Shown here piece by piece: positions 878-54,868 of a DNA stretch of 54,868 bases; within the stretch, counting starts at the first letter, position 1, and each line of letters begins with the position of its first letter. The notes under the pieces are model-generated. The model ran no database searches, was not told where the DNA came from, and saw only the letters and a list, made by a program, of their open reading frames with translations. The stretch spans positions 1 to 54,868 of the IMG/VR virus record IMGVR_UViG_3300003324_000142. One strand, 5' to 3'. A program made the position numbers and the translations under genes. This DNA comes from a virus. Its lineage: Duplodnaviria; Caudoviricetes.

Positions 878-878
878 T

Positions 879-2019: not shown

Positions 2020-2195
2020 AACGTTATAAGGTCGAGATGACGCACGGTCAGGATCAACGGCTGGTCGAAGCGGACAGCGTGCGGCAAATCGACGACTGGC
2101 TCATCTTTTATCGTCTGCCGCCCCAGGGCGGGCCAGCACTGGAACATTGGCGCGTTCGGATCGAATGCGTCGTGTCAATGGAGACAGTACGATGA
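2016..2195 (+). CDS. hypothetical protein (59 aa, not in ORF track)
   Basis: ATGA overlaps at both ends. Begins MKRYKVEMTHGQDQRLVEADSV. Confidence 0.55.
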   Translation: MKRYKVEMTHGQDQRLVEADSVRQIDDWLIFYRLPPQGGPALEHWRVRIECVVSMETVR

Positions 2196-2857: not shown

Positions 2858-2876
2858 CCCTGTCAGGAGCCATCCC

Positions 2877-3101
2877 ATGAACAAATCCGCGCTCAAGGCG
2901 CTCGCCGATGGGCCAGTGGTCCAGGTGCTGCCGGAAAGCACCGCGCAGCCGATGATCGACAGCGGCCACGTCCGCCGCGCCACGATCGATCCGATGCCCA
3001 AGAGCGGCATTCCGGTCAGCATCACGGCCAAGGGCCGCGGCGCGCTCGCGGGTCCGGGTGGCCCGACGCCTCCCCCGCCGCCGCCCCCGCCCAAGGACTG
3101 A
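2877..3101 (+). CDS. small protein with a poly-proline C-terminus
   Basis: AGGAG RBS before ATG 2877. Ends GPGGPTPPPPPPPPKD. Confidence 0.65.
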   Translation: MNKSALKALADGPVVQVLPESTAQPMIDSGHVRRATIDPMPKSGIPVSITAKGRGALAGPGGPTPPPPPPPPKD

Positions 3102-3104
3102 GCG

Positions 3105-3545
3105 GTGCAAATCCACGTCTGGTACGGCGTGGCGCTTGCGGCCATCACCTTTGTCTCTTGGAGGCTTGGTGGTGGCCGTTTCGCATGGGGCAAATTATTC
3201 TGTCACGATCCCGCAGACGACCGCATCTATCTGTGCCTGATCCTATGGTACAATTGGCTTTGCACCAACGCAGCCGCACTGACCCAAGCGTCCTATTACC
3301 CGTTCCTGACGATGTTCGTGATCGACGGCGCGACATGGGGTCTCATCGTCGGCACACTGCAAAGCGACCGCGCGCGGATCGTGGGATACACCAGTCTTGC
3401 GGTGCTGACATACGACATAACGCTCGCAGCCGGCGTGTCGTCGCTCGGGGTGAGCCCTGCGCTTGATTGGCTCCGTATGTTCGGCTACTTCCAGATGCTG
3501 CTCATCCTGCTCCCGGAGAAGCGAGTATGCCCAATCCGGCTCTAG
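3105..3545 (+). CDS. multi-pass membrane protein
   Basis: About 4-5 hydrophobic segments. AAGGA RBS and GTG start. Confidence 0.65.
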   Translation: MQIHVWYGVALAAITFVSWRLGGGRFAWGKLFCHDPADDRIYLCLILWYNWLCTNAAALTQASYYPFLTMFVIDGATWGLIVGTLQSDRARIVGYTSLAVLTYDITLAAGVSSLGVSPALDWLRMFGYFQMLLILLPEKRVCPIRL

Positions 3546-4039
3546 TAGTCCCTGCGGTCAGCACTTTCCCGCTGTCATTCGACGGCAACCCGTGGACCTT
3601 CGGGAGCGCTTTGTTCGCCCTGACCGTCGTGTCGTCGGTATCGCTCGCAACGATGGGCCAATTGTGGGCCGAAGCGCGCGTATTCGGCTATCGGTTCAAT
3701 GCTCCGCATGGTGCCGCACGGACGATTCTGTTCCTGCTGATGCTGTCGTTTTTCATGCGGTCCGCTCCGGACGTGCTTTTCCTGCTGCTATGGGGCGGCG
3801 TCGGACCGCATACCATCGCCATTGTGCTGATCACGAAACGGTGGTTCGACGCGATCAGCGTGATCCCCTTTCTCGGCTCGGCACTCATTCTCATCCGAGC
3901 CCGACCGCCCATCGTGTTCCAATTGACCCGACAACCGCTTCCGGTTGACCTGTGGCCCACATGGCTTATGGTGCGGAAGAACGTGGGGATTATCGGCTTG
4001 GCAATGCTGATAGCAACGGGGGTTACACTTGCGCGATGA
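3527..4039 (+). CDS. multi-pass membrane protein
   Basis: About 4 hydrophobic segments. GGAG RBS before ATG 3527. Confidence 0.7.
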   Translation: MPNPALVVPAVSTFPLSFDGNPWTFGSALFALTVVSSVSLATMGQLWAEARVFGYRFNAPHGAARTILFLLMLSFFMRSAPDVLFLLLWGGVGPHTIAIVLITKRWFDAISVIPFLGSALILIRARPPIVFQLTRQPLPVDLWPTWLMVRKNVGIIGLAMLIATGVTLAR

Positions 4040-4380
4040 CCGTAAAACCGGCCGTTGTTGTCGCGCCGTCATTTGGACCGGCCGTGGTCGTCATTGCCGG
4101 TCAGCCGATTCCGGTCATGGCGGCAGGGCTCGCGGTCGCCGGATTGATCCTCGCGCGACTGGTCGCACCACCCCCTAAAGTCCCGATGACCCGATCGAAG
4201 GCTTGGGCGCTCACCGGCTTGCTAACCGTGGTGTTGCTTGGCGGGGTCATCACAATGCAACCAACCGCGGGCACGGGCGTTGCGCTCGGTGTCGGACTCG
4301 GATATTCGGGGATGCTCGCAATCGAGTTTCTCGGCAGCCGAGTGACCGCCATGTTGAAGGCACTCACCGAAGGGAAGTAG
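4036..4380 (+). CDS. membrane protein, holin-like (about 3 TM)
   Basis: Hydrophobic helices, charged C-terminus, ATGA coupling. Confidence 0.6.
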   Translation: MTVKPAVVVAPSFGPAVVVIAGQPIPVMAAGLAVAGLILARLVAPPPKVPMTRSKAWALTGLLTVVLLGGVITMQPTAGTGVALGVGLGYSGMLAIEFLGSRVTAMLKALTEGK

Positions 4381-6705
4381 TCAGGTGCTATACCCCTGCG
4401 CCGCCGCATACCCAGAGACATCGCCCCGCTCGCCCCAATGGTACAGGGTGGCGCGTGCGTTGGGCTCGTCGGGGTTCTCCGCGAAATAGCCTTGGAGCGC
4501 TCGCCCGCTGTCCACGTAGCCCATCGATTCGAGGATGCCGGCGATGATGTGCGGGCTGACCTGACCGCGCGTGACGGACTGTTTCTTGAGCCGCTGCATC
4601 ACAGCGACGCTGCTGATCCATCCGCCGACGAAGCCAGGCAATTGCTGCTCGACCGCTTCGCTGATGGCACGCTCGATCGGGCTGCGTGAGAGGTTGACAG
4701 CTTCCGCGGTGCTGGTCGTCTCGGGTGCGCGCATCGGGATCGCGCCGCGCTCGATCGGATAGCTGAGCAACCAGTCGGCGACGATCGCCTTGCCGTCGCC
4801 GCGCATCCATTCGAACAACGGCTTGAAATACTCGTCGTTCATACCGCGTTCGATCAGGTCGGATGCGGTTTGGATTGGGCTGTAGAATATGGCGTAGCGA
4901 CGACCGTTCTTCTTCGCCGGGATCGCGTCTTTATAATTTGTGAAGAATCCCCAACACGCAGGGTTGTCCTCCATGTCCTGATCGTGACCTTTGCCCTGTA
5001 TCTCGATCGTTTCGCGGGTCAAAAGCGGCTTCAATACCTCGACCAGATGCAGGCGTTCGTCGACCTTGATTTCGTCGGCCAGAATGAACACCTTGTTGCG
5101 CATCCACGCGTTGAATTTGCCGCCGCCGTCCGCCAGTTCCTGTGCGTTGGGGAAATGGACGTAAGGGGCGCCGACAGCGTGCGTCATGGCGATTTCGATC
5201 ATCGTCTTGCCGGCACCTTCGGCCGACTGGATCACCGGCGCCCATGGTATCTTGTAGCCCGGATACTGGACGATGTGCGCCATCCATTGATGCAGAATGC
5301 GCTGGTCGTTGGTGTCCGGGATCAGCCGCGCCAGGTGGTTCAGGAACGGGCTCGCGTCGCCTTCGATCCGCTGGACCTGTGGTGGCGCGTACATGTTGAC
5401 CCCGGACCGACCAAGCGCGTCCTTCACTATCGCCCCTTGGGGCTGCTGCGGCAGGAAACGGATGTGGTCGACCTTGGGGATGGTCCACAGCGTCGAGCGG
5501 AGCGCCGCCTTCCAGGCTTCGTCGGTTTTCTTGCCGTCGCTGGTGATGATGAACTGCTTGCCACCATAGGCACCGTTGAACGTCGTCGCGTTGTGGAACC
5601 GCCCGTCCGGTGCGAGAATTTTACCCATTTTCACGATGAAGGCACACCCGGCGAAATACTGCTCGCATTCCAAATGCGTCAGATATTCACCGCTGCAATC
5701 GAGCGGCGGCGGTGATGCCACGGACGGCATGGGCGGCACGGTGTCACCCTGCGCCGCCGCGGGCGCTGGCACCTGTTGCCCGCCGAACGACAGCGCCGCT
5801 TGGAGCGCAGGTACCTTGCGGGTCAGATAAGACCAGCCGACCTCTGTGTCGCGCAGCGAATGCCACTGCTTGTGATTCTCACCCCGGTCGTTGGCGTCGT
5901 AACGCTCGCACCATTTGGACCACATGGCGAACAGCGATTCGCAGTCCGTCAGCGACCATCCGGCTTGCTTGACGCCGCTGGTGACGGCGATCCATTCGCC
6001 GCGGTCCAGATCGTTCGGGTCGATCAGGTCAAGCGCCCGCTGGACCCATTCGATCGATGGCGCGGCCATGTCGGGCGTGCCGAGCGGATGCCGGGTGCCG
6101 TTGCCGCCGTCGATTACGTTGACGTGTGCGAGTGCTGTTTCGAGCGCTTCGACGGTGTAGGGCTGACCGAATGCGCCGAGCGCATGGCATGTCACCAGAT
6201 ACGGTTCGCCCTTGCGGTGATAGAAGCCGGGGCATCGCATCACGCGCGTTGCGTCGATGATGTTGTCCGCGTCGTACAACTGGCGCAATTTGCGCTGGAT
6301 CAGGGTGAACCGATCGTTGCCGGTGTAGGGTTGCGTCACCCAATAGACATGATATTTGCCGGGGCTCGACTGGACGGCGAACGACGGGACGGGTTGTAAT
6401 GCTGCGGCCCGCTCGTAATTCTGCTGCGCTGACACGTTGTCCAGATCGGCGTAATTGGCGCGCAGTGCAGACACGTTATCCAGCTTGCGGCCCGCACCGT
6501 CCATCATCGCCGGGGTGACGAAGATGCCGTAGCCGCGTTCATTCATCGCGGTCAGCCATTGCCACAGGTTCGGCAGGGTGCCGCGCTGCGGATGGCCGGG
6601 GTCGCTCTTGTCCGTGTCGTGGAGCGCGCGCCAGTCCATCACCGCTGTATTCGGGTCGCCGGCAATCGCTGAGACGTAGGCCCATGCGTAATCGTAGGGG
6701 GTCAT
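4381..6705 (-). CDS. primase-helicase (RepB'-type AEP primase + PriCT-2 + SF3/D5-like helicase)
   Basis: YADLD and SSPGKYHVYW primase motifs, EWIAV...WSKW PriCT-2, Walker A SAEGAGKT, Walker B ILADE. Confidence 0.88.
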   Translation of the reverse strand: MTPYDYAWAYVSAIAGDPNTAVMDWRALHDTDKSDPGHPQRGTLPNLWQWLTAMNERGYGIFVTPAMMDGAGRKLDNVSALRANYADLDNVSAQQNYERAAALQPVPSFAVQSSPGKYHVYWVTQPYTGNDRFTLIQRKLRQLYDADNIIDATRVMRCPGFYHRKGEPYLVTCHALGAFGQPYTVEALETALAHVNVIDGGNGTRHPLGTPDMAAPSIEWVQRALDLIDPNDLDRGEWIAVTSGVKQAGWSLTDCESLFAMWSKWCERYDANDRGENHKQWHSLRDTEVGWSYLTRKVPALQAALSFGGQQVPAPAAAQGDTVPPMPSVASPPPLDCSGEYLTHLECEQYFAGCAFIVKMGKILAPDGRFHNATTFNGAYGGKQFIITSDGKKTDEAWKAALRSTLWTIPKVDHIRFLPQQPQGAIVKDALGRSGVNMYAPPQVQRIEGDASPFLNHLARLIPDTNDQRILHQWMAHIVQYPGYKIPWAPVIQSAEGAGKTMIEIAMTHAVGAPYVHFPNAQELADGGGKFNAWMRNKVFILADEIKVDERLHLVEVLKPLLTRETIEIQGKGHDQDMEDNPACWGFFTNYKDAIPAKKNGRRYAIFYSPIQTASDLIERGMNDEYFKPLFEWMRGDGKAIVADWLLSYPIERGAIPMRAPETTSTAEAVNLSRSPIERAISEAVEQQLPGFVGGWISSVAVMQRLKKQSVTRGQVSPHIIAGILESMGYVDSGRALQGYFAENPDEPNARATLYHWGERGDVSGYAAAQGYST

Positions 6706-6878
6706 GCCGTCTCCCCCCGAACCCATGCGTCAACCTGCTCGACGGCCCATCGACGCGGTGACGTGCCTGGGATCGCGCGGACGGGGAAGCGCCCGTCGTT
6801 CAACATGTTGTAGAGCGTTCGGCGGCTTACCCCTATATATTCGGCAAGCGCTTTGACGCATAAGGTTTGGGCTGTCAT
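6702..6878 (-). CDS. AlpA/excisionase-like HTH DNA-binding protein
   Basis: LAEYIGVSRRTLYNMLNDGRFP...RRWAVEQVDAW. Confidence 0.8.
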   Translation of the reverse strand: MTAQTLCVKALAEYIGVSRRTLYNMLNDGRFPVRAIPGTSPRRWAVEQVDAWVRGETA

Positions 6879-6879
6879 T

Positions 6880-6970
6880 ACCCTGTGGTAAGCGGTTCGG
6901 GTCGTTCGGGTCAAGCATCTTTTTGCACATTTCTGCATTGCGTGTCGCTTGGGGTGGTGATAAGCCGCGG
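6880..6970. promoter_or_regulatory. divergent promoter region, probably leaderless transcripts
   Basis: Minus-strand CTTGACC near 6915 and plus-strand TTGCGT near 6938, each about 35 nt before an ATG lacking an RBS. Confidence 0.45.
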
Positions 6971-6971
6971 C

Positions 6972-7169
6972 ATGGATATGACCCCGACCGAACGCATCGA
7001 GCGTTACACCGCAGCACGACGAGCCGCAGGGATGCCCGCAGTCCGCATGGACCATGTGGCTGATCGCTACATCGTTTACGGCAGTCAACGTAGCTACAGC
7101 GCTACAGAAGTTGACAACGCCATACACGGTATGCAATTAGCGGTGCAACATAAAGGAGACGACAGATGA
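6972..7169 (+). CDS. hypothetical protein
   Basis: First gene of a divergent unit. ATGA coupling to the next gene. Confidence 0.55.
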   Translation: MDMTPTERIERYTAARRAAGMPAVRMDHVADRYIVYGSQRSYSATEVDNAIHGMQLAVQHKGDDR

Positions 7170-7852
7170 CGAAAACCACATGGGGTGAACCGATCAAAAC
7201 CAACGGTGTGAAGCCGGCGTGGTTGCGTGATGACGACGTTTGGCAGTGGTCAATCAGCCACACTGATCATTTCATCGACGCCAATTTTACCGCCAGTAAA
7301 TACGACGCTGCCGATCAGTATCGTTTCATCGCTCGGGTTCGTCTGCCCGCCGATCATCCCGCCTATATCATCCTCGCAGCCGGCGAACCGCTATGGGACG
7401 GACGGACCGGGTGGATGCCGTGGCATGGTGGCGAGCGTGCGCCGGATGATTGGGACGGTGGACACCAGATGGCCCGCAACGGAGACGTCGATAAATATGT
7501 CGAATGGCGGCACCCGTGGCGTGGTGGAGTCGGTACAACAGAGTTCGACATCATCGCCTATCGTCCGACGCAGCAGGCTTCGACCGGTTCGGTTCCGAAT
7601 GCTGTCTCAACGCAATGGTACGATCCCGGTGAGTATCCCTATGCTCACACCCGAGACGACGCGATCAAACTGCTCACTGATGCGGGTTACAAGATCGAGC
7701 CGCCCGATCCGTTGGCACCGGCGCGTGAGGCGTTGGCTCAGGCCATGGAAGCAGTCGGCAACCCGTACTCGGCCAACATTTATCGTAGCAAAGGCAACGA
7801 AGTGGTCGTCCAAGCCATCGCCGACCGCTTCACGCTCAAGGCAGACACCTGA
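7166..7852 (+). CDS. hypothetical protein
   Basis: AAGGAG RBS. Contains WHGGERAP...DIIAYR, a motif common in phage proteins. Confidence 0.75.
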   Translation: MTKTTWGEPIKTNGVKPAWLRDDDVWQWSISHTDHFIDANFTASKYDAADQYRFIARVRLPADHPAYIILAAGEPLWDGRTGWMPWHGGERAPDDWDGGHQMARNGDVDKYVEWRHPWRGGVGTTEFDIIAYRPTQQASTGSVPNAVSTQWYDPGEYPYAHTRDDAIKLLTDAGYKIEPPDPLAPAREALAQAMEAVGNPYSANIYRSKGNEVVVQAIADRFTLKADT

Positions 7853-7924
7853 GCGGTGTGGGACTACAGCAAGGGTGCGGGTGCGAAAGCACAAGGACGA
7901 CACAACAGAAAAGGTGGTTATATT

Positions 7925-8092
7925 ATGAACCGCGACTATTTCACCCGACCGATCCAGGGCGGTGGGCGTGACGCCCATTACTACGGCAACAGCGGACCAT
8001 TGCAGCCGATGGACCAACCGGCGTCACGCAGCCGCCTGATGGTCGCTGCACTGCTGTTCGCAGCGGTCGTCGTGCTGTGGGTGGTGATATGA
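7925..8092 (+). CDS. small protein with a C-terminal TM helix
   Basis: AAGGTGG RBS and hydrophobic C-terminus. Confidence 0.55.
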   Translation: MNRDYFTRPIQGGGRDAHYYGNSGPLQPMDQPASRSRLMVAALLFAAVVVLWVVI

Positions 8093-8385
8093 CCTACGCC
8101 GCAATGGGCAAGCAAGTTCTGCTGGATGGCACGCATTACGCCGACGCGCGTGATCCGGTCGTCGCGCAGCAGATCGTCGAAGCGCTGCGACTGCGTGAGG
8201 ATTTGGTGGCATGGAACGACGTATCGCCGATGCATCCGGATCAGGTCGTCGAAATCACACCGATTGCGGCTGACGCACCGCGGCGTGTTCGAGGCATGGT
8301 GTGCCAAGTGACGCAGCAGCAGGATGAATACGCTTGCACTTGCGGTCGACGGTGGGACGTGGCGGATGGCCCTGAGCACCCCTGA
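8089..8385 (+). CDS. hypothetical protein (C-terminal Cys motif)
   Basis: ATGA coupling. CQV...CTCGRRWD. Confidence 0.6.
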   Translation: MTYAAMGKQVLLDGTHYADARDPVVAQQIVEALRLREDLVAWNDVSPMHPDQVVEITPIAADAPRRVRGMVCQVTQQQDEYACTCGRRWDVADGPEHP

Positions 8386-20713: not shown

Positions 20714-20862
20714 CCAGTGGTGCGGATCGGTTCGTGGGCAGGCTTGCCGATGGTCCGATCCGCGCGCCTGTCCTGAGATCGGGGATATTATCCCTTACTG
20801 AAATCGCGCGCCGTGGGAATTGGGCGCTGCCCACGCACAGGTTGCACGGCGCGCGATACTGG
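20714..20862 (+). ncRNA. putative structured RNA/DNA element
   Basis: Nested inverted repeats, including a perfect 13-bp stem 20803-15/20845-57. Confidence 0.4.
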
Positions 20863-20870
20863 AACAAGAA

Positions 20871-21449
20871 ATGCTACCTTTGCGTCGATGCAATACATGT
20901 GACTCTGACAAACCACTGGATGAATTTTACAACAATAAGTCGCGCAAAGACGGCAAATACACCAAATGTAAGGACTGTCAGAAGTCTTATCAAAGAAATC
21001 GTTACAAGCACGACCCCGAAGTAAGAAAGCAACACGCCGATTACGACAGGAAGCGCAGAACGCACGATCCGAAATTTGTCGAAGCGGTTCGACGGCGGTC
21101 TAGAAAATTTTACGGCTCTGTCAAAGGTCGCGCAAAAACCTTGTTTTCGGCTGCGTGCAGGCGTGATCCCGACGCAACAATAACTCTTGAATTTGTAGAA
21201 AATCGAATCGCAGAAGGGTTTTGCGAAGTTACAAAAATACCGTTCGATTTATCCAACGGCTATCAAATTCTCACAGGGTCTAAAAATAACCCTTTCGCGC
21301 CTTCACTCGATCGAAAGAACCCAAAAGTTGGTTACACTCCCGAAAACGTAAGAGTTGTGATTTGGCAATTCAACTGGATGAAAGGCGAACTGTCCGATAT
21401 TGAATTGAAATATTTTTGCCAAACGATTCTGAAAGCCCTAGAGCAATGA
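20871..21449 (+). CDS. His-Me finger (HNH-like) homing endonuclease
   Basis: CNTC...KPLDEFY...CKDC, CEVTKIPF...PSLDRKNP.VGYT.ENV...N.MK. Low GC. Confidence 0.75.
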   Translation: MLPLRRCNTCDSDKPLDEFYNNKSRKDGKYTKCKDCQKSYQRNRYKHDPEVRKQHADYDRKRRTHDPKFVEAVRRRSRKFYGSVKGRAKTLFSAACRRDPDATITLEFVENRIAEGFCEVTKIPFDLSNGYQILTGSKNNPFAPSLDRKNPKVGYTPENVRVVIWQFNWMKGELSDIELKYFCQTILKALEQ

Positions 21450-22930
21450 TCACTCTCGACAATGCGCAAGTATACGATGTCGAATGTTTCAGCAATCTGT
21501 TCATGTTGACCGCGATGTCGCTGAACCGGGACGATTGCAACGTTTGGGAGATCAGCGACTATCGGAACGACGCAGCCCAATTGATTCAGTGGTTCAATTG
21601 GTTGCAGCAGACGCAGACGCCGATGATCAGCTACAACGGCGAGCATTACGACTACCCGATGATACACATGCTGATGATGTCGGCGGGCCGAGCGTCCAAT
21701 GCGGACCTCTACGCCAAGTCGCAGGCGATCATCGGCAGCAACGATCGGTTCGGACACACGATCTGGCCGCGGGATCGCTTCGCGCCGCAGATCGACTTGC
21801 TCAAATTGCACCATTTCGACAACCAGGCCAAGCGCCAGTCGTTGAAAGGATTGCAGTTCAACATGCGCTCGCCGTCCGTGGTGGACGCGCCGATCCCGTT
21901 CGATCAACCGGTCCGAGCGGATCAGGTCGACACGGTGTTGCACTACAACAAGCACGACGTTCTCGAAACGAAGCGATTCGCCGGCTATAGCGCCGACGCG
22001 ATCAAATTCCGGCTCGGGCTCGTCGATCAGTTCGGTGTCGAATGCCTCTCGTGGAACGACACCAAGATCGGCGAGAAGATGCTCGAACAGCGTCTTGGCG
22101 ATGACGTGTGCTACGATCGGTCCAGCGGGCGCAAAGAGCGCCGTCAGACCATCCGGGACCGCATTGCCCTGCGCGACATCATCTTCCCGTACGTCCAGTT
22201 CCAGCACCCTGAATTTCAGCGCATCCACCAGTTCATGCTCAACCAGGTGTTGACGCCTGACGACATTGAAACCAGCGCCGTCGCTGATTTTGGGGGTGGT
22301 CGCAAAGCACAAGTGAGCGCCATCCGGACCAAGGGCGTGTTCACCGACCTCCACGCTGATGTCGGCGGACTCCGCTTCCATTTCGGCACTGGTGGCGTCC
22401 ATGCGTCCGTCGAGGCGCAACGGTTCATCGCGACTGACGAATGGTTGATCCGCGACATCGACGTGGCGGCGCTGTATCCGAGCCTCGCGATCGTCAACCG
22501 GCTCGCCCCGGCTCACCTTGGCGAAGCGTTCGTCGCCGAATACGCGAAAATCCCGGCCGAGCGGAAGCAGCACGCCAAGGGCACCTACATGAACGCCGCG
22601 CTCAAGCTGGCGGCGAACGGCGCGTGGGGAAAGTCCAACAGCATGTACAGCGTGTTCTACGATCCGCAGTACGCCATGACGATTCCGATTAACGGACAGT
22701 TACTTATCTGCATGTTGGTCGAATGGCTGTTGACGGTGCCGACTATATCACTCGTGCAATGCAATACGGATGGCGTCACGTATCGCATTCATCGCGACTA
22801 TCTGGCAGCGGCTCAAGCCATCGAGCGGCAATGGCAGGATTATACAGGGTTGACCCTTGAGGACGCATTCTACAGTCGGATGTGGATTCGGGATGTGAAC
22901 AATTATTTAGCGGAGTATATTGATGACTGA
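21446..22930 (+). CDS. family B DNA polymerase, N-terminal polypeptide (exonuclease + palm)
   Basis: YDVEC, YNGEHYD, DIDVAALYPS, KLAANGAWGK, QCNTDG. Ends RDVNNYLAEYIDD. Confidence 0.88.
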   Translation: MITLDNAQVYDVECFSNLFMLTAMSLNRDDCNVWEISDYRNDAAQLIQWFNWLQQTQTPMISYNGEHYDYPMIHMLMMSAGRASNADLYAKSQAIIGSNDRFGHTIWPRDRFAPQIDLLKLHHFDNQAKRQSLKGLQFNMRSPSVVDAPIPFDQPVRADQVDTVLHYNKHDVLETKRFAGYSADAIKFRLGLVDQFGVECLSWNDTKIGEKMLEQRLGDDVCYDRSSGRKERRQTIRDRIALRDIIFPYVQFQHPEFQRIHQFMLNQVLTPDDIETSAVADFGGGRKAQVSAIRTKGVFTDLHADVGGLRFHFGTGGVHASVEAQRFIATDEWLIRDIDVAALYPSLAIVNRLAPAHLGEAFVAEYAKIPAERKQHAKGTYMNAALKLAANGAWGKSNSMYSVFYDPQYAMTIPINGQLLICMLVEWLLTVPTISLVQCNTDGVTYRIHRDYLAAAQAIERQWQDYTGLTLEDAFYSRMWIRDVNNYLAEYIDD

Positions 22931-23495
22931 ATGTATGGTTTGCGGTGCTGAAATCGTCAGCAAAATACGAAAAGTCACCTGCTCGCAAGAGTGTTACGGA
23001 ATCTATGATAAAACACGAAAAGCTGCGTATAGAAACGCAAATAAAGAGAAATTGAGGTTATATAATAAACAATACAGAAAGAAAAATTTAGAAAAATGCA
23101 GAGCGAGTAGTTTACGCAGCCGTGATAAGTTTATGGCATCAATCGAACATCGTCCTGACAAAAGAATCGATCTTTTGATGCGGAGTTGTCGTCTAAGCGC
23201 TAAAAGGAAGAATATCGCATTTGAATTATCTTCCGCTGTCATAATGACGTTGATAAAATCTCAAAATGAGCAATGTGCGCTGACCGGGATCAGTTTTGAT
23301 TGGGGTTTTGGCGGCGAACATCGCGCCAATCCTTTTGCCCCATCGATAGATCGAAAAGATAGCAGAAAAGGTTACACATACGACAACATTCAGATCGTCT
23401 GTTATATTGTAAACTTGGGTAAAAATGAATACCCGATTGAATTATATGATCGGGTGTGTCGCGCCAGAGTAGGAATTTTAAATGGGGAAACTTAA
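22920..23495 (+). CDS. His-Me finger (HNH-like) homing endonuclease inserted in the polymerase gene
   Basis: CMVC...TCSQEC, CALTGISF...PSIDRKDS.KGYT.DNI...N.GK. Very low GC. Confidence 0.8.
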   Translation: MMTECMVCGAEIVSKIRKVTCSQECYGIYDKTRKAAYRNANKEKLRLYNKQYRKKNLEKCRASSLRSRDKFMASIEHRPDKRIDLLMRSCRLSAKRKNIAFELSSAVIMTLIKSQNEQCALTGISFDWGFGGEHRANPFAPSIDRKDSRKGYTYDNIQIVCYIVNLGKNEYPIELYDRVCRARVGILNGET

Positions 23496-24057
23496 ACAGA
23501 AAGGTGTATATCATTTTCCTGACCCGCTCGATTACGCCGCGAGTATCAGCACCATGTCACCACCGGGCTGGCATCGGGATTGGTCGGCGACTGTAGTTCA
23601 AGAATCTGCTGTCGCCGCTATGGTTCACAATGTGCCGCCTGAGACGTTTGTCCACGCTTGCACCAACCCATACGCATTCTGTCTCCGCGCCAAAGTGGAC
23701 CGGTCGAGCCGCCTGTATCTCGGGGATCGCGAGATGCAACGCACCACCCGCTACTATGTCGCTCGTCAAGGGTCCGAACTGATCAAAATCAGTCCACCGG
23801 CTGCTGGCGGTGTGATCGGACAATGGAAGCGAGCGAACGGTGTGACCAAGGCCGAATACGACCGCGTGATGACCGAAACCGGTGGTGCATGGGACGAGCG
23901 GGTCTGCACGAAGAACCAATCCAAATACACCGAACGACGTACCGCATTTCAGGCAGGTTATGCCATCGCCGAATGCAACGACGCTGCGTCGTTCCGGTTT
24001 GACAACCTGAATTACGATTGGTACATCGGTGAAGCACGAAAACTGATCATAGGATGA
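23482..24057 (+). CDS. family B DNA polymerase, C-terminal polypeptide (thumb region)
   Basis: Begins MGKLKQKGVY, the expected continuation after NNY. Ends LNYDWYIGEARKL. Own AGGA RBS. Confidence 0.8.
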   Translation: MGKLKQKGVYHFPDPLDYAASISTMSPPGWHRDWSATVVQESAVAAMVHNVPPETFVHACTNPYAFCLRAKVDRSSRLYLGDREMQRTTRYYVARQGSELIKISPPAAGGVIGQWKRANGVTKAEYDRVMTETGGAWDERVCTKNQSKYTERRTAFQAGYAIAECNDAASFRFDNLNYDWYIGEARKLIIG

Positions 24058-48949: not shown

Positions 48950-49029
48950 ACTGACCGTTTGGTAAGTGCGGTATGGTTGAGCGGTCGATTGGACCGCTCA
49001 ACGGCGCCAGTGATCCAGGCGAACGATTA

Positions 49030-49322
49030 TGAACGTATGTTGTATTGGATCGTTCGGGTCGGTCGATTGTGAACGTATGTTGTATAATCGAGTTATTCAG
49101 AAACCCATACAACGCCGCATTAGGACGCAGAAATGCAATGTTGTATTAACTGTATTATATAGTGTATGTTATGCTGAATAATGAAATGTATCCCATAATT
49201 AGGGTAGGGGTTTGAGCGTGTTTGTGCCGGATTTACGGATTATAAACCGATACAACATCACAATGACCCATTTGATACAACATACGATAGTAATCGCTCG
49301 CCCCGCTCGTTTCATGTTGTAT
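49030..49322. repeat. AT-rich array of ATGTTGTAT motifs (origin- or pac-like)
   Basis: Forward copies at 49037, 49077, 49138, 49314. Inverted copies at 49250, 49275. Near-copy at 49107. Confidence 0.7.
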
Positions 49323-49336
49323 AGATTTATAATCGC

Positions 49337-49364
49337 TTGACACCCGCCCCAGGCGCGCTAATGT
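49337..49364 (+). promoter_or_regulatory. early promoter
   Basis: TTGACA...GCTAATGT upstream of the first early gene. Confidence 0.6.
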
Positions 49365-49397
49365 AGCATAATCAACCAACGACACGGAGTAACTGAC

Positions 49398-49601
49398 ATG
49401 TTGACCGAACGAGCCGCACTGAACAAAGACACCACCACCGGCAAAGCCGATATGCAGCATCGGCATTTTGCCACGATCGCAACGATCCTGCGCAACATGG
49501 GCGCCGATCGTGAGACGGTGGAGCGTTGGGCCGATGAGTTGGTTCCGACCAATCCGCGCTTTGATCGGCGCCGTTTCATCCGTGCCGCGCTTGCGGAGTA
49601 A
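49398..49601 (+). CDS. hypothetical early protein
   Basis: GGAG RBS. RHF..IA...TNPRFDRRRF.RA. Confidence 0.7.
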   Translation: MLTERAALNKDTTTGKADMQHRHFATIATILRNMGADRETVERWADELVPTNPRFDRRRFIRAALAE

Positions 49602-49606
49602 CCGAG

Positions 49607-49852
49607 ATGAAACTTGGCACGAAGAACCACCGCAGCGTAGGTAAGCGCGTTCAAATTCCGGCATATACCGATTTGTGGATGCGCGGCGCGCGTTTCGGCA
49701 CAGTCGAACGATTCATCGCCGGTTCCCGCGGCTATCTTGATCCACATGATCCGCGCGCCGCCGATATTTTCGTCATTCGCATGGATCATCCGGCGGCGCG
49801 CAAATTAGTCCGCGTGATCGCCGACGATTGCACGTTCATCGAGAAAGCATGA
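49607..49852 (+). CDS. hypothetical early protein (SH3-like)
   Basis: GGAG RBS. VGKRVQIP..TDLWMRGARFGTV. Confidence 0.7.
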   Translation: MKLGTKNHRSVGKRVQIPAYTDLWMRGARFGTVERFIAGSRGYLDPHDPRAADIFVIRMDHPAARKLVRVIADDCTFIEKA

Positions 49853-50142
49853 CCATGCGCCACACACTCATCACAGCCGCCACGCTCGCCCTGACCGCCA
49901 GCACCATCGCCACCGTCGCCCACATGGAGCAAGCGGCCCCGCGGCCCGAGCCCGTCCGATGGTCCCTTGAGCGCGACACGGCAGCGCTGGAGCGTATCAC
50001 CGTCGCCACGGGCCTCACGCTGTCCGACTGTGCCGCCGCGGCCCAACGGCTCGCCCTGACCGCCAGCACCGACACAATCGACGCAGACGCCGGGAGCACG
50101 ATCAACATCCTATGCGTGCCTGAGATGGAGCCCCGGCCATGA
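49849..50142 (+). CDS. hypothetical protein with a signal-peptide-like N-terminus
   Basis: ATGA coupling. MTMRHTLITAATLALTAS. Confidence 0.55.
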   Translation: MTMRHTLITAATLALTASTIATVAHMEQAAPRPEPVRWSLERDTAALERITVATGLTLSDCAAAAQRLALTASTDTIDADAGSTINILCVPEMEPRP

Positions 50143-50333
50143 GTGAGACAATAACCATTCGCATCAACGTTGACCGGTACGCGCTGAACAATCGGCTGGG
50201 CAACGTCCAGACCGTATCGCTGGAACATGCAATAACCGAATTGCTGAACGGCGCGTTTGGTCCGGAGCACGATCCGCACAGCGGCGAGATCATCGAGCCC
50301 GCTGTCGAGGCAACATTTGAATTTATCAGTTGA
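50139..50333 (+). CDS. hypothetical protein
   Basis: GGAG RBS and ATGA coupling. Confidence 0.55.
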   Translation: MSETITIRINVDRYALNNRLGNVQTVSLEHAITELLNGAFGPEHDPHSGEIIEPAVEATFEFIS

Positions 50334-50478
50334 CGCAACGCAATGAGCCGCGCGAAGCACCTGGAAAGCATGGTGTCTGAGGGATGGCGCGCCCGCGATG
50401 GCCGATTGATCCACAGCGATGGACGGCCCGAATATTACAATTCGTTCACGTCCTACGGGATGGAATACGCAACATGGC

Positions 50479-50507
50479 TTGACACAACGCTACAGCGTCA
50501 CTACATA
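50479..50507 (+). promoter_or_regulatory. early promoter
   Basis: TTGACA-N17-TACATA. Confidence 0.65.
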
Positions 50508-50522
50508 TAAACACACGCTGAT

Positions 50523-50563
50523 ACGGAGCCCTCTAGGCGGCTCTACATACGGAGTAACCGACA
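50523..50563 (+). repeat. 41-bp leader repeat, copy 1
   Basis: ACGGAGCCCTCTAGGCGGCTCTACATACGGAGTAACCGACA. Confidence 0.9.
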
Positions 50564-50923
50564 ATGACTAACATCTATACCCGCTTTGACCGCGCCACGT
50601 CCGACATCACCGCCATTGCCTTGCTACGGAACGGCAAGCCGGTTGGTCGCATCGTTATCAAATACGGCGCAGCGGCAACAGCCTACGTTCAGATTTGGGG
50701 CGCCCCGATGGCGACCGCTCGCGCTACCGGTGGCGGATATGATAAGGCAACCGCCGCTGTCATGTCTGCGGTGGAGCGCATGACCGACCGTCCCAACAAG
50801 CGCGACACCGTTGCCACCGCGGCATTCGATGCGATTCGCGCCGTAGCGTCCGAATGGGACGGTGGCACGCGCTACACATCGGCGTTGGTGGCTGCCGGCT
50901 TCATGCTGGCTTTGGTAGTCTGA
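50564..50923 (+). CDS. hypothetical early protein
   Basis: Follows the leader repeat. A.GGGYDK motif. Confidence 0.7.
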   Translation: MTNIYTRFDRATSDITAIALLRNGKPVGRIVIKYGAAATAYVQIWGAPMATARATGGGYDKATAAVMSAVERMTDRPNKRDTVATAAFDAIRAVASEWDGGTRYTSALVAAGFMLALVV

Positions 50924-50947
50924 CACATACAGCACGGAGTAACTGAG

Positions 50948-51283
50948 ATGACACAGATGCCGATGGATTTTTACGAAGCTCGCGATGCTATCCAGTCCGG
51001 ATGCGCCAGCTATCCGATGTGCCGCGATCCGCAAGCCGAGATGACGCCGGATCAACGTCGCAAATATCGCGGCGATAATTTCATGACGCCGGAACGGATC
51101 ACGATGCGCCGCGTCGGTCCGTTCATCGTGGAAGTTTCCACCGGAACATTTCTCAGCGATCGAATGATCGGGCTGACTGTGTTTCGCATCGGCGGTGACG
51201 CCAATAACGATTATGAATTGTGCCAGTGCGTTCACAGCATTGACGAGATGCAAGCGCATCTTGATACATTGGCGGCGCTGTAA
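50948..51283 (+). CDS. hypothetical early protein
   Basis: GGAGTAACTGA RBS unit. NFMTP...VEVSTG.F. Confidence 0.7.
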   Translation: MTQMPMDFYEARDAIQSGCASYPMCRDPQAEMTPDQRRKYRGDNFMTPERITMRRVGPFIVEVSTGTFLSDRMIGLTVFRIGGDANNDYELCQCVHSIDEMQAHLDTLAAL

Positions 51284-51324
51284 CTCGCCTGGCGCATGTC
51301 GCCAATGAGACAGGAGTAACCGAG

Positions 51325-51567
51325 ATGATCACCCCCGCCACAATCGCTCGCACGGCCCAAGCGTGCCACCACACCCAAAAGAGCCTCGCAACGCTGGCGC
51401 GCCATAAGCTGCGCGGCACGTATCACGAGGATGCGGCATTGCACCTGCTCGACCGCAACATGCGCGACGCCTGCAAACGCCTTGGCATCCGCGCCACATA
51501 CGATACGCGCCGCCGCGCTGCGCGACTGGTGCTATCGGCCTGGATGGAACAGGTCGCCATCGCTTGA
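51325..51567 (+). CDS. hypothetical early protein
   Basis: AGGAGTAACCGA RBS unit. Confidence 0.6.
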   Translation: MITPATIARTAQACHHTQKSLATLARHKLRGTYHEDAALHLLDRNMRDACKRLGIRATYDTRRRAARLVLSAWMEQVAIA

Positions 51568-51592
51568 CACGGACCGCATGGGCCGATACATA
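51564..51592 (+). promoter_or_regulatory. early promoter
   Basis: TTGACA-N17-TACATA. Confidence 0.65.
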
Positions 51593-51609
51593 AGACATGC
51601 AACACAGCA

Positions 51610-51650
51610 ACGGAGCCCTCTAGGCGGCTCTACATACGGAGTAACCGACA
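51610..51650 (+). repeat. 41-bp leader repeat, copy 2
   Basis: Identical to 50523-50563. Confidence 0.9.
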
Positions 51651-51889
51651 TGACGACTTGGACCGTAGAACACACCGACACGTTCGCCGGTGAGGCGAAT
51701 TATTCTTGGGTTAACCGCCAGTGTTTCGACATGCCGGACGACGCAACACAGCGCCAGATTGTCCGTAAGGCGAAGGAATTGATTGGCGAAACCGGATCGC
51801 CGACGCGCACGGAGTATTACAACGGCGATACGTATGAATTGCGCTATCCCGGCCGTTGCGTCGTTACGTTTATCGTCGCCAATTACTGA
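51650..51889 (+). CDS. hypothetical early protein
   Basis: E.TDTF.GEANYSWV.R motif. Follows the repeat. Confidence 0.7.
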   Translation: MTTWTVEHTDTFAGEANYSWVNRQCFDMPDDATQRQIVRKAKELIGETGSPTRTEYYNGDTYELRYPGRCVVTFIVANY

Positions 51890-51898
51890 AACACAGAG

Positions 51899-51939
51899 AC
51901 GGAGCCCTCTAGGCGGCTCTACATACGGAGTAACCGACA
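51899..51939 (+). repeat. 41-bp leader repeat, copy 3
   Basis: Identical to 50523-50563. Confidence 0.9.
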
Positions 51940-52268
51940 TGACACGAGCATACAAACCGCGCCGCGCTTCGAAGCGTTGGACGAACGACGCGCCCGCTTG
52001 GGTGCTCGATTGTTTCGATCATCCGCAATTCGCTGATCGCTACACCGTTATTTTCGGCGGCGATTTGATCGAAGGCAACGGAACCTTTCGCAACACATGG
52101 CTTCACTATCTCAGCACGTCCGAAAACGGCGGCGTTAGCGGCATTGGCGAATTTGAAGCGCATACCGCCGCCGCGTATCGCTATCGCAACAAAAATCGCC
52201 GGATCGCATGGCGCGATTTGCCCGAACCGGTCAAAGCGATGGCGACTCGATTCGCCACGGAGGATTGA
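51939..52268 (+). CDS. hypothetical early protein
   Basis: DRYTV...RI.W.DLPE.V motif. Follows the repeat. Confidence 0.7.
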   Translation: MTRAYKPRRASKRWTNDAPAWVLDCFDHPQFADRYTVIFGGDLIEGNGTFRNTWLHYLSTSENGGVSGIGEFEAHTAAAYRYRNKNRRIAWRDLPEPVKAMATRFATED

Positions 52269-52272
52269 GCCA

Positions 52273-52539
52273 ATGACACGCATCACACACAAGCAAATTG
52301 AGCAAGCCGTCGCACGGTACAACGCCGCGCGCGGTCTGACATATCCCGCTATCGGGTATCTTCAATATGCCGACATCCGCGGCGACGGGGGCAACCGGCG
52401 CGGGCTTTATGTCGGTATCAATGCGCAAGGCGGCGTCGGCACGTCCTACGTGCCCCGCCTGGGCCGCACGATGCGCGAGACACTGGCGAATATCGAAGCC
52501 GCATGTGCGCTGACGATGGCGCCGAGCGCGCCAGAGTGA
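52273..52539 (+). CDS. hypothetical early protein
   Basis: GGAGG RBS before ATG 52273. Confidence 0.6.
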   Translation: MTRITHKQIEQAVARYNAARGLTYPAIGYLQYADIRGDGGNRRGLYVGINAQGGVGTSYVPRLGRTMRETLANIEAACALTMAPSAPE

Positions 52540-52754
52540 CGAATGATCCATTGGACCAATTGGAGTTAAAGAGATGACATACCCCACAATCGACGCTCGC
52601 GCAGCCTGGGCGGGAAACCGCAACGAATGCGGCCGGCTCTATCGACAATGGCGCGATTGTTTCGCCGGATCGTTCGCGGCATTGCGCCGCTATTACGGTT
52701 GGACACGCCCCGCAATGGTTCAAGCGTTGCGCATCGGCCAAACCGTCTAACACA

Positions 52755-52825
52755 GCCGAAACGGCGCATTCGGTGAGATGCGCCGTCCGCACATGGTGCC
52801 GCATGTGCGCTGACGACGGCAGGCA
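52755..52825 (+). ncRNA. type II hammerhead ribozyme 1
   Basis: GCC-GAAA-CGGCGCAT/ATGCGCCG-TC-CGCACATG/CATGTGCG-CTGACGA-C-GGC. Loop TGCC can pair with 3' GGCA. Confidence 0.85.
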
Positions 52826-52841
52826 ATTTAGGTGTGATACG

Positions 52842-53006
52842 ATGAACGGACGTTACAAAACATTCGGCGAAGCCGCTAAGGTTCAATCACGCGAATTACA
52901 GAAACGCGGCGTTTTCAAAGCGCCGATTTGTGTCGGCGACGATGGCCTATATTACGTCCGATGCGAGCAACACGGCACAACCGGATCAAGCATTTACAAC
53001 GCATAG
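52842..53006 (+). CDS. small hypothetical protein between the ribozymes
   Basis: AGGTG RBS, 54 aa. Confidence 0.55.
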   Translation: MNGRYKTFGEAAKVQSRELQKRGVFKAPICVGDDGLYYVRCEQHGTTGSSIYNA

Positions 53007-53090
53007 CCGAAACCGCTCGCCAGAGCGACCTATGTGTCGCCTGGCACGGTCGCACCGGGTATCCCGTTCGGTGCCTGACGATGGCAGGGA
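53006..53090 (+). ncRNA. type II hammerhead ribozyme 2
   Basis: GCC-GAAA-CCG...CGG-TC-GCACCGGG/TTCGGTGC-CTGACGA-T-GGC. Loop TCCC can pair with 3' GGGA. Confidence 0.8.
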
Positions 53091-53096
53091 ATAGAT

Positions 53097-53480
53097 ATGC
53101 TGACGCTTATTCGCGGCTTGCCTGGATCGGGTAAATCGACGCTCGCGCGATCGATGGCCGATCATGTGCATATCGAAGCGGATATGTATTTCACGGTGCC
53201 TCGCACTGGCGAATATCGGTTTGATCCGGATCGCTTGAGCAATGCGCATAATTGGTGCCAGTGGCGCACTCGTCGCGCTTTGGCTGAAGGTTCTCGCGTT
53301 GTCGTCAGCAACACATTCACGCGCGCTTGGGAGATGCGGCCCTATTTCGACATGTGCGCCAATGTGCGCGTTATCGAATGCAAGGGCCATTGGCCGAATG
53401 TGCACGGTGTCCCCGCCGATGCCATCGCCCGCATGGCAGAACGCTGGGAACCGGTCGAATTGGTGGATTATCTCGCATGA
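53097..53480 (+). CDS. P-loop kinase (AAA_33/polynucleotide-kinase-like)
   Basis: LIRGLPGSGKSTLA, EADMYF, AH.WCQ, VVVSNTF, NVHGVP. Confidence 0.85.
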   Translation: MLTLIRGLPGSGKSTLARSMADHVHIEADMYFTVPRTGEYRFDPDRLSNAHNWCQWRTRRALAEGSRVVVSNTFTRAWEMRPYFDMCANVRVIECKGHWPNVHGVPADAIARMAERWEPVELVDYLA

Positions 53481-53619
53481 CACGAATGCAAGCCGAGCAT
53501 CGCGCCGCACGGCTCAACGCGCGTCACCCCGGCACGTCCTACGCGGCCGCGCATATCAGCGCCACATGGTGCGTCGAGACGCACAGGGGCGGATGTGTGA
53601 CAGAGCGGCGATTTGAGCC

Positions 53620-53994
53620 ATGAGCGTGCCCGGATCGCCCGTCAGGGGCGGAATAAACCCGCACGGCCCCACAGGGGCGGAGCGATGCCACGCGACCGGC
53701 CGGCACGACTGGTCCAATTGGGGACCGTGGCGCCCGTTGCAGCCGGCTTGGCCGTGGATAGTGAGCGAGCCGTTGCCCAAACCGCCGTTGCCCCTAACGA
53801 TCCAAGCCAATCGGCACCGCCAGTGCGTCGACTGTGGCGCTGTGGAACGCGAGACGCACGACGGCAAGCGGCAGGTGATACATGACCCGTCCGGTGTGGA
53901 TCGATACATGCAGCCACGCGGCCAGGGGCGAAGCGATGCAACAGGCACCGGCACACGCCCACACAGATACATTGCTACAGCGAATCGTGTATAA
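53620..53994 (+). CDS. hypothetical protein
   Basis: ATGA-coupled ORF with C...HDW...CVDC. Confidence 0.45.
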   Translation: MSVPGSPVRGGINPHGPTGAERCHATGRHDWSNWGPWRPLQPAWPWIVSEPLPKPPLPLTIQANRHRQCVDCGAVERETHDGKRQVIHDPSGVDRYMQPRGQGRSDATGTGTRPHRYIATANRV

Positions 53995-54119
53995 CGACTA
54001 CACCGTTAACACAGGAGCGAAGCAATGACTAAGATAACCGCAGCCGAATGGCTGGACAAACAGACCGCCGAAGCGAAGGAACCGCTGTCGACGATCGCCG
54101 CTTAGGGCTGCGAACCTAA

Positions 54120-54153
54120 CTCGCCGCGGCTTTTGTCACGGCGGGTCTTTTTT
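54120..54153 (+). terminator. intrinsic terminator
   Basis: CTCGCCGCGGC-TTTT-GTCACGGCGGG followed by a T-run. Confidence 0.6.
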
Positions 54154-54223
54154 ATGTTGCATGATACGCCGCACCGGTCCATACGACTTACATGTTGGTC
54201 AGCATTGATCAGGGAGACGACGA

Positions 54224-54661
54224 ATGACCCAAGAGACCGTGAGCCAGCGGGCGAGAGATCGTGAGAAGGCATACAATCGCGCCATGATCCTCGAAGCGGA
54301 CGCAACCGGCGCCACCACGCCAGGATATGCGCGCCGAGCAGCGTTGCGTGCCATGGAGGCGTGGGAGCGCTCCATCCTCTCCGAACACTCGGATGGCGTT
54401 GTTACCTGCCCGATCTGCGGTGATGATAATTCACCGTGTAAGGTGTGCAACGGCCATGGGTTCCTGACAACGGAGGAAGCTGCCGGTTGGCTACTTGCGC
54501 AGCGGGATGTCTCCGAACACGACAGCCGTGTGAAGGAGCTGGAGGCACTTTTAGCCGAGTGCTGCACAATCCTTAAAGCAGCGGCGCGACCCGGCGAACG
54601 TCCGAGTCTCTTAGTCCGGGTTGAAGCCGCCCTCAACGGAGGCTCCGATGCAGGAGAGTGA
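54224..54661 (+). CDS. hypothetical protein with a Zn finger
   Basis: AGGGAG RBS. CPICG...CKVCNGHG. Confidence 0.7.
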   Translation: MTQETVSQRARDREKAYNRAMILEADATGATTPGYARRAALRAMEAWERSILSEHSDGVVTCPICGDDNSPCKVCNGHGFLTTEEAAGWLLAQRDVSEHDSRVKELEALLAECCTILKAAARPGERPSLLVRVEAALNGGSDAGE

Positions 54662-54868
54662 TATTGTAGACGAATTGTTGGCGTTATCTCGATCTGATGC
54701 GCCAGCGAAAACGCGCTCCCTTGCTCGTGCCGCGAAGAGTGAAATCACCCGCCTCCGCGCCCTCACGAACGATGCGAACGGATGGATCGTCGCCAATGCT
54801 GACGGAACACTCTGGCGGCGTTGGGATGCTGGCGGTCCCGAGTGGACAAGTCAGCGTACAGAGGCGGC
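54648..54868 (+). CDS. N-terminal part of a hypothetical protein continuing at position 3
   Basis: GGAGG RBS before ATG 54648. No stop before the window end. Confidence 0.7.
   Translation, partial: MQESDIVDELLALSRSDAPAKTRSLARAAKSEITRLRALTNDANGWIVANADGTLWRRWDAGGPEWTSQRTEA

Follow-up and report, generated by a model that had tools for sequence, protein, structure and literature searches.

Hammerhead ribozymes are known from phage genomes. In the parts of their paper drawn on here, Perreault et al. (2011; PLoS Comput Biol, PMC3088659) describe several hammerheads that flank single genes or short gene blocks in prophages, and propose that long phage transcripts are processed into messenger RNAs (mRNAs) of operon length or single-gene length. 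According to the same text, successive cleavage and ligation could also yield spliced or circular products, which were sought and not detected, and a triple hammerhead arrangement from Agrobacterium cleaves in vivo. A later review (2019; PMC6765202) repeats the processing idea and states that the purpose of phage hammerheads is still to be defined. In a review devoted to RNA circles with ribozymes (de la Pena et al., 2020; PMC7761336), phages are credited with hammerheads of all three types, but the passages considered describe no phage circles. Our literature search found no paper that settles the function of phage hammerheads. Here, we analyze IMG/VR virus record IMGVR_UViG_3300003324_000142, the whole 54,868 nucleotides (nt) of which are termed the window. 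Two type II hammerhead ribozymes, HH1 and HH2, bracket an open reading frame (ORF) of 54 amino acids (aa) near its right end. A sequence-only reading of the same DNA had stated that phage hammerheads are known and that their role is unclear, in agreement with the layout given in PMC3088659 and with the undefined purpose mentioned in PMC6765202, as far as these sources were consulted. Indeed, the layout of the locus has been known in phages since 2011, and what we present is a new example and no new principle.

Judged by their sequence, both elements are genuine and complete type II hammerheads that reside on the coding strand, and their occurrence is not random. We consider it probable that they self-cleave within a polycistronic transcript and thereby generate single-gene messages. 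The two ribozymes are:

52754-52828, plus strand: HH1, type II hammerhead; 43 bits with Rfam model RF02276 (cut-off 37), descriptor match.
53005-53093, plus strand: HH2, type II hammerhead with a long, interrupted stem III; 23.5 bits with RF02276 (below cut-off), descriptor match, pseudoknot.

In HH1, stem II is formed by GCC (52755-57) and GGC (52818-20) and comprises 3 base pairs (bp). GAAA is found at 52758-61, stem III spans 52761-52786 and GUC occupies 52785-87, placing the predicted cut after 52787. Stem I pairs 52788-95 with 52802-09 below the loop GUGCCG, CUGACGA (52810-16) is followed by one extra C at 52817, and UGCC in loop I (52797-800) forms a pseudoknot of 4 bp with the tail GGCA (52822-25; tail offset 1). 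The descriptor assigns 8 bp to stem I, 10 bp to stem III and 3 bp to stem II. HH2 is built in the same way, with GCC (53006-08) pairing with GGC (53083-85) in stem II, GAAA at 53009-12, GUC at 53049-51 and a predicted cut after 53051. Its stem III (53012-53050) is long and interrupted, with 4 + 5 + 5 pairs around an internal loop, stem I pairs 53052-57 with 53069-74, CUGACGA (53075-81) precedes one extra U at 53082, and UCCC in loop I (53062-65) pairs with the tail GGGA (53087-90), which begins 1 nt past stem II. When G-U pairs are counted, the descriptor gives 9, 4 and 3 bp for stems I, III and II; the outer part of stem III has 4 bp and the stem resumes past the internal loop.

Both ribozymes thus contain CUGACGA, GAAA and GUC in the correct order, with an A-U pair closing stem III. 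The pairs 1.1-2.1, 10.1-11.1 and 15.1-16.1 are standard and there is no mispair at the core. Of the three helices around the core, stems I and III end in loops, whereas stem II is open. Both also feature one extra nucleotide past A9 that the Rfam model reads as an insertion. The sequence-only reading had claimed exactly this core (GAAA, GUC, CUGACGA with one extra nucleotide, GCC/GGC stem II) for both elements, and every motif can be read from the letters. The same is true for its statement that stems I and III differ between the two and nevertheless pair, which the descriptor bears out, and its coordinates for the predicted cuts and for the resulting product of 264 nt (52788-53051) hold. While stems I and III differ, the 3' parts are alike (GUGC, CUGACGA, one base, GGCAGG, one base, AAU) and are clearly paralogous. 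The covariation reported for the pseudoknot (UGCC:GGCA versus UCCC:GGGA) amounts to one true compensatory swap, in which a C-G pair of HH1 is a G-C pair in HH2 through changes of a tail base and the opposite base of loop I, in tails that are otherwise near-identical.

Searches were run with RF02276 (Hammerhead ribozyme type II, clan CL00010; gathering cut-off 37 bits) and with our own descriptor, which demands the core and the three stems, tolerates up to two extra bases before stem II and leaves the pseudoknot out of its criteria. On both strands of the window, the descriptor finds HH1 and HH2 only. After shuffling with dinucleotides preserved, the average was 0.025 matches per shuffle, and only five of 200 shuffles had any match at all; two matches on the same strand 264 nt apart therefore far exceed chance. 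None of 14 control genomes gave a match in the same Rfam search. The catalytic folds of the two ribozymes lie 1.4-3.1 kcal/mol from the respective minimum, with the pseudoknot uncounted; for HH1 the values are -32.6 versus -35.7 kcal/mol, and its minimum-energy fold is nearly catalytic (z = -2.31).

The placement of the ribozymes relative to the genes is precise. As noted in the sequence-only reading, each starts at the end of the upstream ORF. The stop codon of a 58-aa ORF (52574-52750) is located 3 nt before HH1, and the TAG (53004-06) that terminates the 54-aa ORF (52842-53006) overlaps the first two bases of HH2. The locus therefore agrees with the arrangement described by Perreault et al., as two plus-strand hammerheads with cuts 264 nt apart bracket ORF 52842-53006 in a phage.

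How common such an arrangement is was assessed by scanning IMG/VR viral contigs with a core pattern taken from these ribozymes. At least 117 other contigs match, and the counts that follow refer to the matches listed. The descriptor is passed by 58 of the 117 contigs with a total of 88 matches; the 59 that fail it may represent chance matches or copies with bulged stems. Thirteen contigs carry between 2 and 12 descriptor matches each. Neighbors on the same strand are spaced 231-1069 nt apart in 22 of 30 cases and further apart in seven, and the remaining spacing of 6 nt is one site parsed twice. With an upstream ORF defined as at least 40 open codons, 82 of the 88 matches have an ORF end at a distance of -1 to +17 nt and three at 36-45 nt, while another three have no such ORF. 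At random positions of the same loci an ORF end occurs at that distance in 594 of 4680 cases (12.7%). A pseudoknot of at least 4 pairs can be formed in 43 of the 88 copies and starts 0-2 nt past stem II in 41 of these, and an extra base past A9 is present in 49 of 88. On all these counts, HH1 and HH2 are typical of their class of hammerheads. A short distance between the ribozyme and the next start codon, as seen for HH2, is found in a minority. Stem II begins with GCC in six of 13 neighboring hammerheads that had not been selected for GCC. A re-scan of seven multi-copy loci with Rfam yielded ten matches over the cut-off, in three of the seven.

One of the densest arrays in the survey is present on an IMG/VR contig of 111,982 nt (L042), where 12 descriptor matches for type II hammerheads, one site being parsed twice, are found in 8.5 kb (locus positions 587-8207). 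They are 536-1069 nt apart and follow nearly every gene, and three score over the Rfam cut-off.

Processing of the transcript would proceed as follows. The cluster would be transcribed as one long RNA, and the two ribozymes would fold in it and self-cleave, HH1 after 52787 and HH2 after 53051. Since both stem I and stem III of a type II hammerhead form hairpins, the RNA upstream of each cut would have the stem III hairpin at its 3' end, terminated by a 2',3'-cyclic phosphate, while the downstream RNA would start with a 5'-OH followed immediately by the stem I hairpin. The 54-aa ORF would thus come to lie on a single-gene RNA of 264 nt, the 58-aa ORF and the kinase-like gene downstream of HH2 (53097-53480) would each be left on a message of their own, and stability and translation of neighboring messages would thereby be uncoupled. 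A 5'-OH end and a 5' hairpin disfavor RNase E, which is stimulated by 5'-monophosphates, and a 3' hairpin together with a blocked 3' end disfavors 3' exonucleases and poly(A) polymerase. Following these rules of bacterial mRNA decay, the fragments should be protected. The HH2 fold may have an additional effect. The pseudoknot strand GGGA (53087-90) is situated 6 nt ahead of the ATG at 53097 and is the sole Shine-Dalgarno-like element there, so that it probably doubles as the ribosome-binding site of the kinase-like gene. Given this double use, folding of HH2 could lower, and may thus damp, translation of that gene. Self-cleavage, co-transcription of the cluster, stabilization by the ends and the influence on translation are all inferred. 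Because the motifs are located on the coding strand between small phage genes, self-cleavage into single-gene messages fits both the anatomy of the locus and the hypothesis published by Perreault et al. (2011), as set out in the parts of that paper cited above. Were processing to take place, it would speak for a use of ribozymes by phages, instead of host RNases, to define the ends, and perhaps the lifetimes, of their messages.

A number of observations weigh against transcript processing by two active ribozymes. With 23.5 bits, HH2 stays below the RF02276 gathering cut-off of 37, with an E-value of 0.22 when 5.9 kb were searched with all 4227 Rfam families and of 4.9e-4 when RF02276 alone was run on the whole genome. 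According to the alignment, the low score is due to the length of loop I and to 29 nt inserted in stem III. In addition, the catalytic secondary structure of HH2 (-35.7 kcal/mol, pseudoknot uncounted) competes with a fold at -37.1 kcal/mol that pairs the 3' strand of stem I with GCCGAA. As this competitor is the minimum, cleavage of HH2 may be slow. GenBank phages contain no DNA match to the locus, an exact 18-nt piece from the 3' part of HH1 is absent from the viral contigs searched, and none of 18 viral loci with homologs of the kinase-like gene contains a hammerhead; Rfam gave no match at E<=5 on the five closest of these. Since no relatives with these two ribozymes were found, there is no covariation across species to draw on. 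The survey loci were picked by a pattern from this very ribozyme and hence describe one subclass. A search for consensus promoters and terminators in the small-gene cluster returned nothing above chance level and defined no transcript, and the 54-aa ORF is an orphan with the weakest codon-position signal among its neighbors. Of the "early mRNA processing" put forward in the sequence-only reading, processing remains plausible on the grounds of anatomy and of the hypothesis in PMC3088659, but the label "early" is an inference from a group of small genes without known function. The Rfam check that the same reading had suggested turned out well for HH1, which exceeds the cut-off, but not for HH2.

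The ribozymes are accompanied by the following genes:

52574-52750, plus strand: 58-aa ORF upstream of HH1, from the ORF list.
52842-53006, plus strand: 54-aa ORF between the ribozymes, from the ORF list; AGGUG 7 nt ahead of its ATG.
53097-53480, plus strand: 127-aa P-loop kinase-like gene (AAA_33); Pfam AAA_33 at 1.4e-11, phrog_2071 at 9e-30.

The 58-aa ORF has no match in Pfam, PHROG or NCBIfam. Of the 175 nt that separate the two Rfam matches (52829-53003), 165 are taken up by the 54-aa ORF. Protein and locus searches, viral contigs included, revealed no credible relative, and a word-based search returned the ORF itself only. Two long repetitive proteins added by a full HMMER search give no BLASTP alignment, and their matches are most plausibly artefacts of repeats or composition. 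The first hits seven unrelated Pfam families, solely through weak stretches that add up, and the second is without a Pfam family. The G+C content at third codon positions (GC3) of the 54-aa ORF is 0.51, the lowest of 11 ORFs; the other ten range from 0.62 to 0.77. In the stretch 52829-53004, represented by ORF 52842-53006, G+C averages about 50% over the three codon positions, versus 59.4% for the genome. By its composition, the 54-aa ORF may be a recently acquired cassette; that it is untranslated is less likely.

The kinase-like gene also matches phrog_505, "polynucleotide kinase", at 9.5e-7. The model of its product has a predicted local distance difference test score (pLDDT) of 90.8, and the nearest folds are O-phosphoseryl-tRNA kinase (PSTK), Pnkp1 and the bacterial, mammalian and T4 polynucleotide kinases; gluconate kinases and adenosine 5'-phosphosulfate (APS) kinases score almost equally. 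A sequence search of the PDB gave no match, and NCBIfam matches are far under their cut-offs. An RNA 5'-kinase tied to the ribozymes would be an attractive partner for cleaved ends. This idea was not upheld and is no more than a lead, considering the near-equal scores of gluconate and APS kinases and the 18 homolog loci (identity up to 63%), none with a hammerhead, from which it follows that any link between kinase and ribozymes is not conserved. In three large viral contigs (L016, L017 and L018; locus positions 3591-3758), two tRNA genes are located at most about 230 nt past the kinase-like homolog. This fits the fold likeness to tRNA and polynucleotide kinases and is only a hint.

A further piece of a hammerhead, overlooked in the sequence-only reading as was the sub-cut-off score of HH2, lies upstream of HH1. 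All statements that reading had made about the sequence itself stand.

52498-52520, plus strand: orphan copy of the HH1 3' half; 23 nt, of which 22 are identical to 52798-52820.

In the orphan half, the 3' strand of stem I is followed by CUGACGA, one extra U and GGC. The copy resides 300 nt upstream of its counterpart in HH1, within the last 13 codons of ORF 52273-52539. A third complete hammerhead at this position can be rejected, as the upstream sequence contains neither GAAA nor a GUC/GUH partner, the descriptor does not match and Rfam gives no match at E<=10. Three homologs of ORF 52273-52539 (56-78% identity) are conserved up to residue A77 and then diverge or continue differently, and this limit falls just past the start of the half copy at codon A76. 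The closest homolog extends about 50 residues further. Searching with an alignment of the homologs turned up one truncated viral locus and no match in metagenome contigs. From this pattern, the orphan half is probably a deletion scar, left when the body of ORF 52273-52539 was fused to a third hammerhead, similar to HH1, at a point halfway through the latter; the junction perhaps lies at the short homology GCCGCA that is common to both partners. A destroyed third copy suggests that hammerheads can be lost by deletion at short homologies. Formation of a discontinuous hammerhead from the orphan half and the 5' half of HH1, in which stem I would be open and stem II would have a loop of 234 nt that holds ORF 52574-52750, is unlikely because the own 3' half of HH1 adjoins and should win, and because the alternative would cut at the same site without a pseudoknot.

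In the survey, orphan halves are rare. When 89 distinct ribozyme 3' halves at CUGANGA sites were probed, one locus outside the window stood out (L103), and its halves are probably full copies that escape the descriptor, arguing against orphan halves as a recurrent feature. L103 has four near-identical hammerhead 3' halves on the plus strand, at locus positions of about 2967, 3239, 3617 and 4002, with 0-2 differences per 23 nt and 272-385 nt apart. One of the four is part of a full descriptor match; the others are variant hammerheads beyond the descriptor or further orphan halves.

Among the alternatives to transcript processing, the most durable one sees the ribozymes as relics without a role, left over from gene cassettes that are shuffled between phages, with HH2 possibly decaying and cleavage weak or irrelevant. 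The clearly destroyed paralogous copy at 52498-52520 is suggestive of such a fate, and so are the sub-cut-off score and competing fold of HH2, the 18 of 18 loci where homologs of the kinase-like gene do without hammerheads, and the enclosed 54-aa ORF, an orphan of lower GC3 as expected of a recent cassette. However, the cores of both HH1 and HH2 are intact at all conserved positions, the pseudoknot has been kept via a compensatory double change, which argues for selection on the fold, and an exact layout of stop codon, ribozyme and start codon is shared with the 82 of 88 cases mentioned above. We therefore regard relics as unlikely.

It is less probable still that the 264-nt piece is released as a non-coding small RNA and that ORF 52842-53006 is not translated. 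Such a role would be in line with the failure of every search to find a homolog of the 54-aa ORF and with its GC3, the lowest of the ORFs compared, but it does not explain why this ORF takes up almost all of the space between the two Rfam matches and is preceded by AGGUG at a distance of 7 nt from the ATG, nor why it ends exactly at HH2 like genes at other phage hammerheads. Moreover, the piece shows no excess of structure (z = -0.51) and matches no Rfam family except at chance level (E = 3.8).

A circular mini-mRNA of 264 nt or, alternatively, a splice of the flanks after both cuts, with the ends joined either by an RtcB-type ligase of the host or by a hybrid ribozyme that runs the hammerhead reaction in reverse, appears very improbable. 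RtcB-type ligases use 5'-OH and cyclic-phosphate ends as substrates. The hybrid described in the sequence-only reading (stem I and CUGA of HH1 with GAAA and stem III of HH2) has the correct geometry and is complete, HH1 contributing stem I, CUGACGA, GGC and the pseudoknot tail and HH2 contributing GCC, GAAA and stem III. On the flanks, the reciprocal hybrid would have the usual size of a type II hammerhead. In the minimum-energy and centroid folds of the 264-nt piece, a helix CGGC:GCCG closes over the ORF, and stems I and III form in the former. Yet, any pair of type II hammerheads that share a short stem II could form such a hybrid, which is therefore not specific for this locus, considering that GCC recurs in 6 of 13 unselected neighbors. 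The ends are joined by this short helix alone, 3 bp in the catalytic register and 4 bp in the predicted fold, with each end in a hairpin of its own, and the stability of the piece is at the level of shuffled sequences, as given by the z-score above. A PHROG scan of 62 ORFs named no RNA ligase. The length of 264 nt is divisible by 3, but a stop codon is present in all three frames of the circle, and an endless reading frame is thus rejected. The circular mRNA envisaged in the sequence-only reading consequently lacks locus-specific support. Circular and spliced outcomes are both named as possible in the part of PMC3088659 considered here, but when sought in that case none were detected. We give least credence to an extended version in which HH1 and HH2 are RNA recombination sites that yield a circular mini-mRNA and spliced flanks, the kinase-like protein acts on 5'-OH ends and decides between ligation and decay, and the orphan half records an earlier exchange of cassettes.

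Self-cleavage into single-gene messages thus remains the preferred explanation, and the genome in which it would take place is that of a tailed phage, as indicated by PHROG matches for portal, large terminase, head morphogenesis, tape measure, major tail, tail fibre, primase, helicase and DNA polymerase. The record is the whole IMG/VR virus record with a completeness rating of 100%, 59.4% G+C and no end repeats. Its nearest portal relatives (41-44% identity) stem from genomes labelled Hyphomicrobiales, Roseovarius and Nitrosomonadaceae, from which a proteobacterial host can be weakly guessed. The minus strand encodes the structural genes, which reach to about 47 kb. The right end, starting at about 50.3 kb, is occupied by a series of small plus-strand ORFs, mostly with a GGAG-type ribosome-binding site. 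Only one of the 14 small ORFs in this cluster belongs to a Pfam family (AAA_33, the kinase-like gene), and three have any PHROG family. An Rfam scan of 49000-54868 for other ribozyme classes at the remaining gene junctions returned nothing above chance.

The cluster contains another repeated element. A 30-nt sequence is present in three identical plus-strand copies at 50525-50554, 51612-51641 and 51901-51930, where zero are expected by chance. Each copy directly precedes a start codon and comprises a small hairpin (GGAGCC...GGCUCU) and, behind it, the ribosome-binding site ACAUACGGAG. The repeat has no Rfam match and may be a second type of intergenic punctuation, e.g., a processing or stabilizing hairpin, in the hammerhead-bearing cluster. 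Elsewhere in the genome, the DNA polymerase gene is split (21416-24057, plus strand), with ORFs 21416-22930 and 23482-24057 matching the front and the back of one PHROG profile. An ORF resembling HNH/endonuclease VII (22920-23495) lies between the halves and a further one just upstream (20820-21449), and the polymerase looks as if it had been split by insertion of a homing endonuclease. No intron family reaches the Rfam cut-off.

Compared with the RF02276 family, both ribozymes share the core nucleotides, the open stem II, the capped stems I and III and the pseudoknot tail, and HH1 exceeds the cut-off. They differ from it in the 3-bp stem II and the extra nucleotide past A9, and HH2 scores below the cut-off. 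Discontinuous hammerheads with halves hundreds of nucleotides apart occur in the 3' untranslated regions of mouse Clec2 genes, and the orphan 3' half could in principle pair with the 5' half of HH1 in a comparable manner. Unlike the Clec2 type, however, HH1 has its own 3' half directly adjacent and the alternative would cut the same site without a pseudoknot, and a deletion scar makes the better reading. Viroids, satellite RNAs and retrozymes resemble the locus in that two hammerheads bound a unit of a few hundred nucleotides with 5'-OH and cyclic-phosphate ends (de la Pena et al., 2020; PMC7761336). There, repeated identical units arise by rolling-circle or tandem-repeat transcription. Here, in contrast, stems I and III differ between HH1 and HH2, the unit is unrepeated, with no tandem repeat of the 264 nt found in the window, and it is part of a DNA phage operon.

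The closest match are the prophage clusters of Perreault et al. (2011), as described in the parts of that paper used here. They share same-strand hammerheads a few hundred nucleotides apart that bracket one small gene of variable identity, the type II form with a pseudoknot between loop I and the 3' tail, the proposed single-gene mRNAs and the alternative of circles or splicing. Different are the phage and the genes, the long interrupted stem III of HH2, a paralog left as a 3' half and the overlap of GGGA with the probable ribosome-binding site. What our locus adds, then, is the 23-nt orphan half copy, the double use of GGGA by the pseudoknot and a probable ribosome-binding site, and an enclosed 54-aa ORF without credible relatives. 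With two ribozymes and one tiny gene in about 340 nt, it offers a compact test case for the purpose of phage hammerheads, and the overlap in HH2 allows cleavage, folding and translation to be separated by a few point mutants, a handle that, like the destroyed third copy, most of the other examples do not provide.

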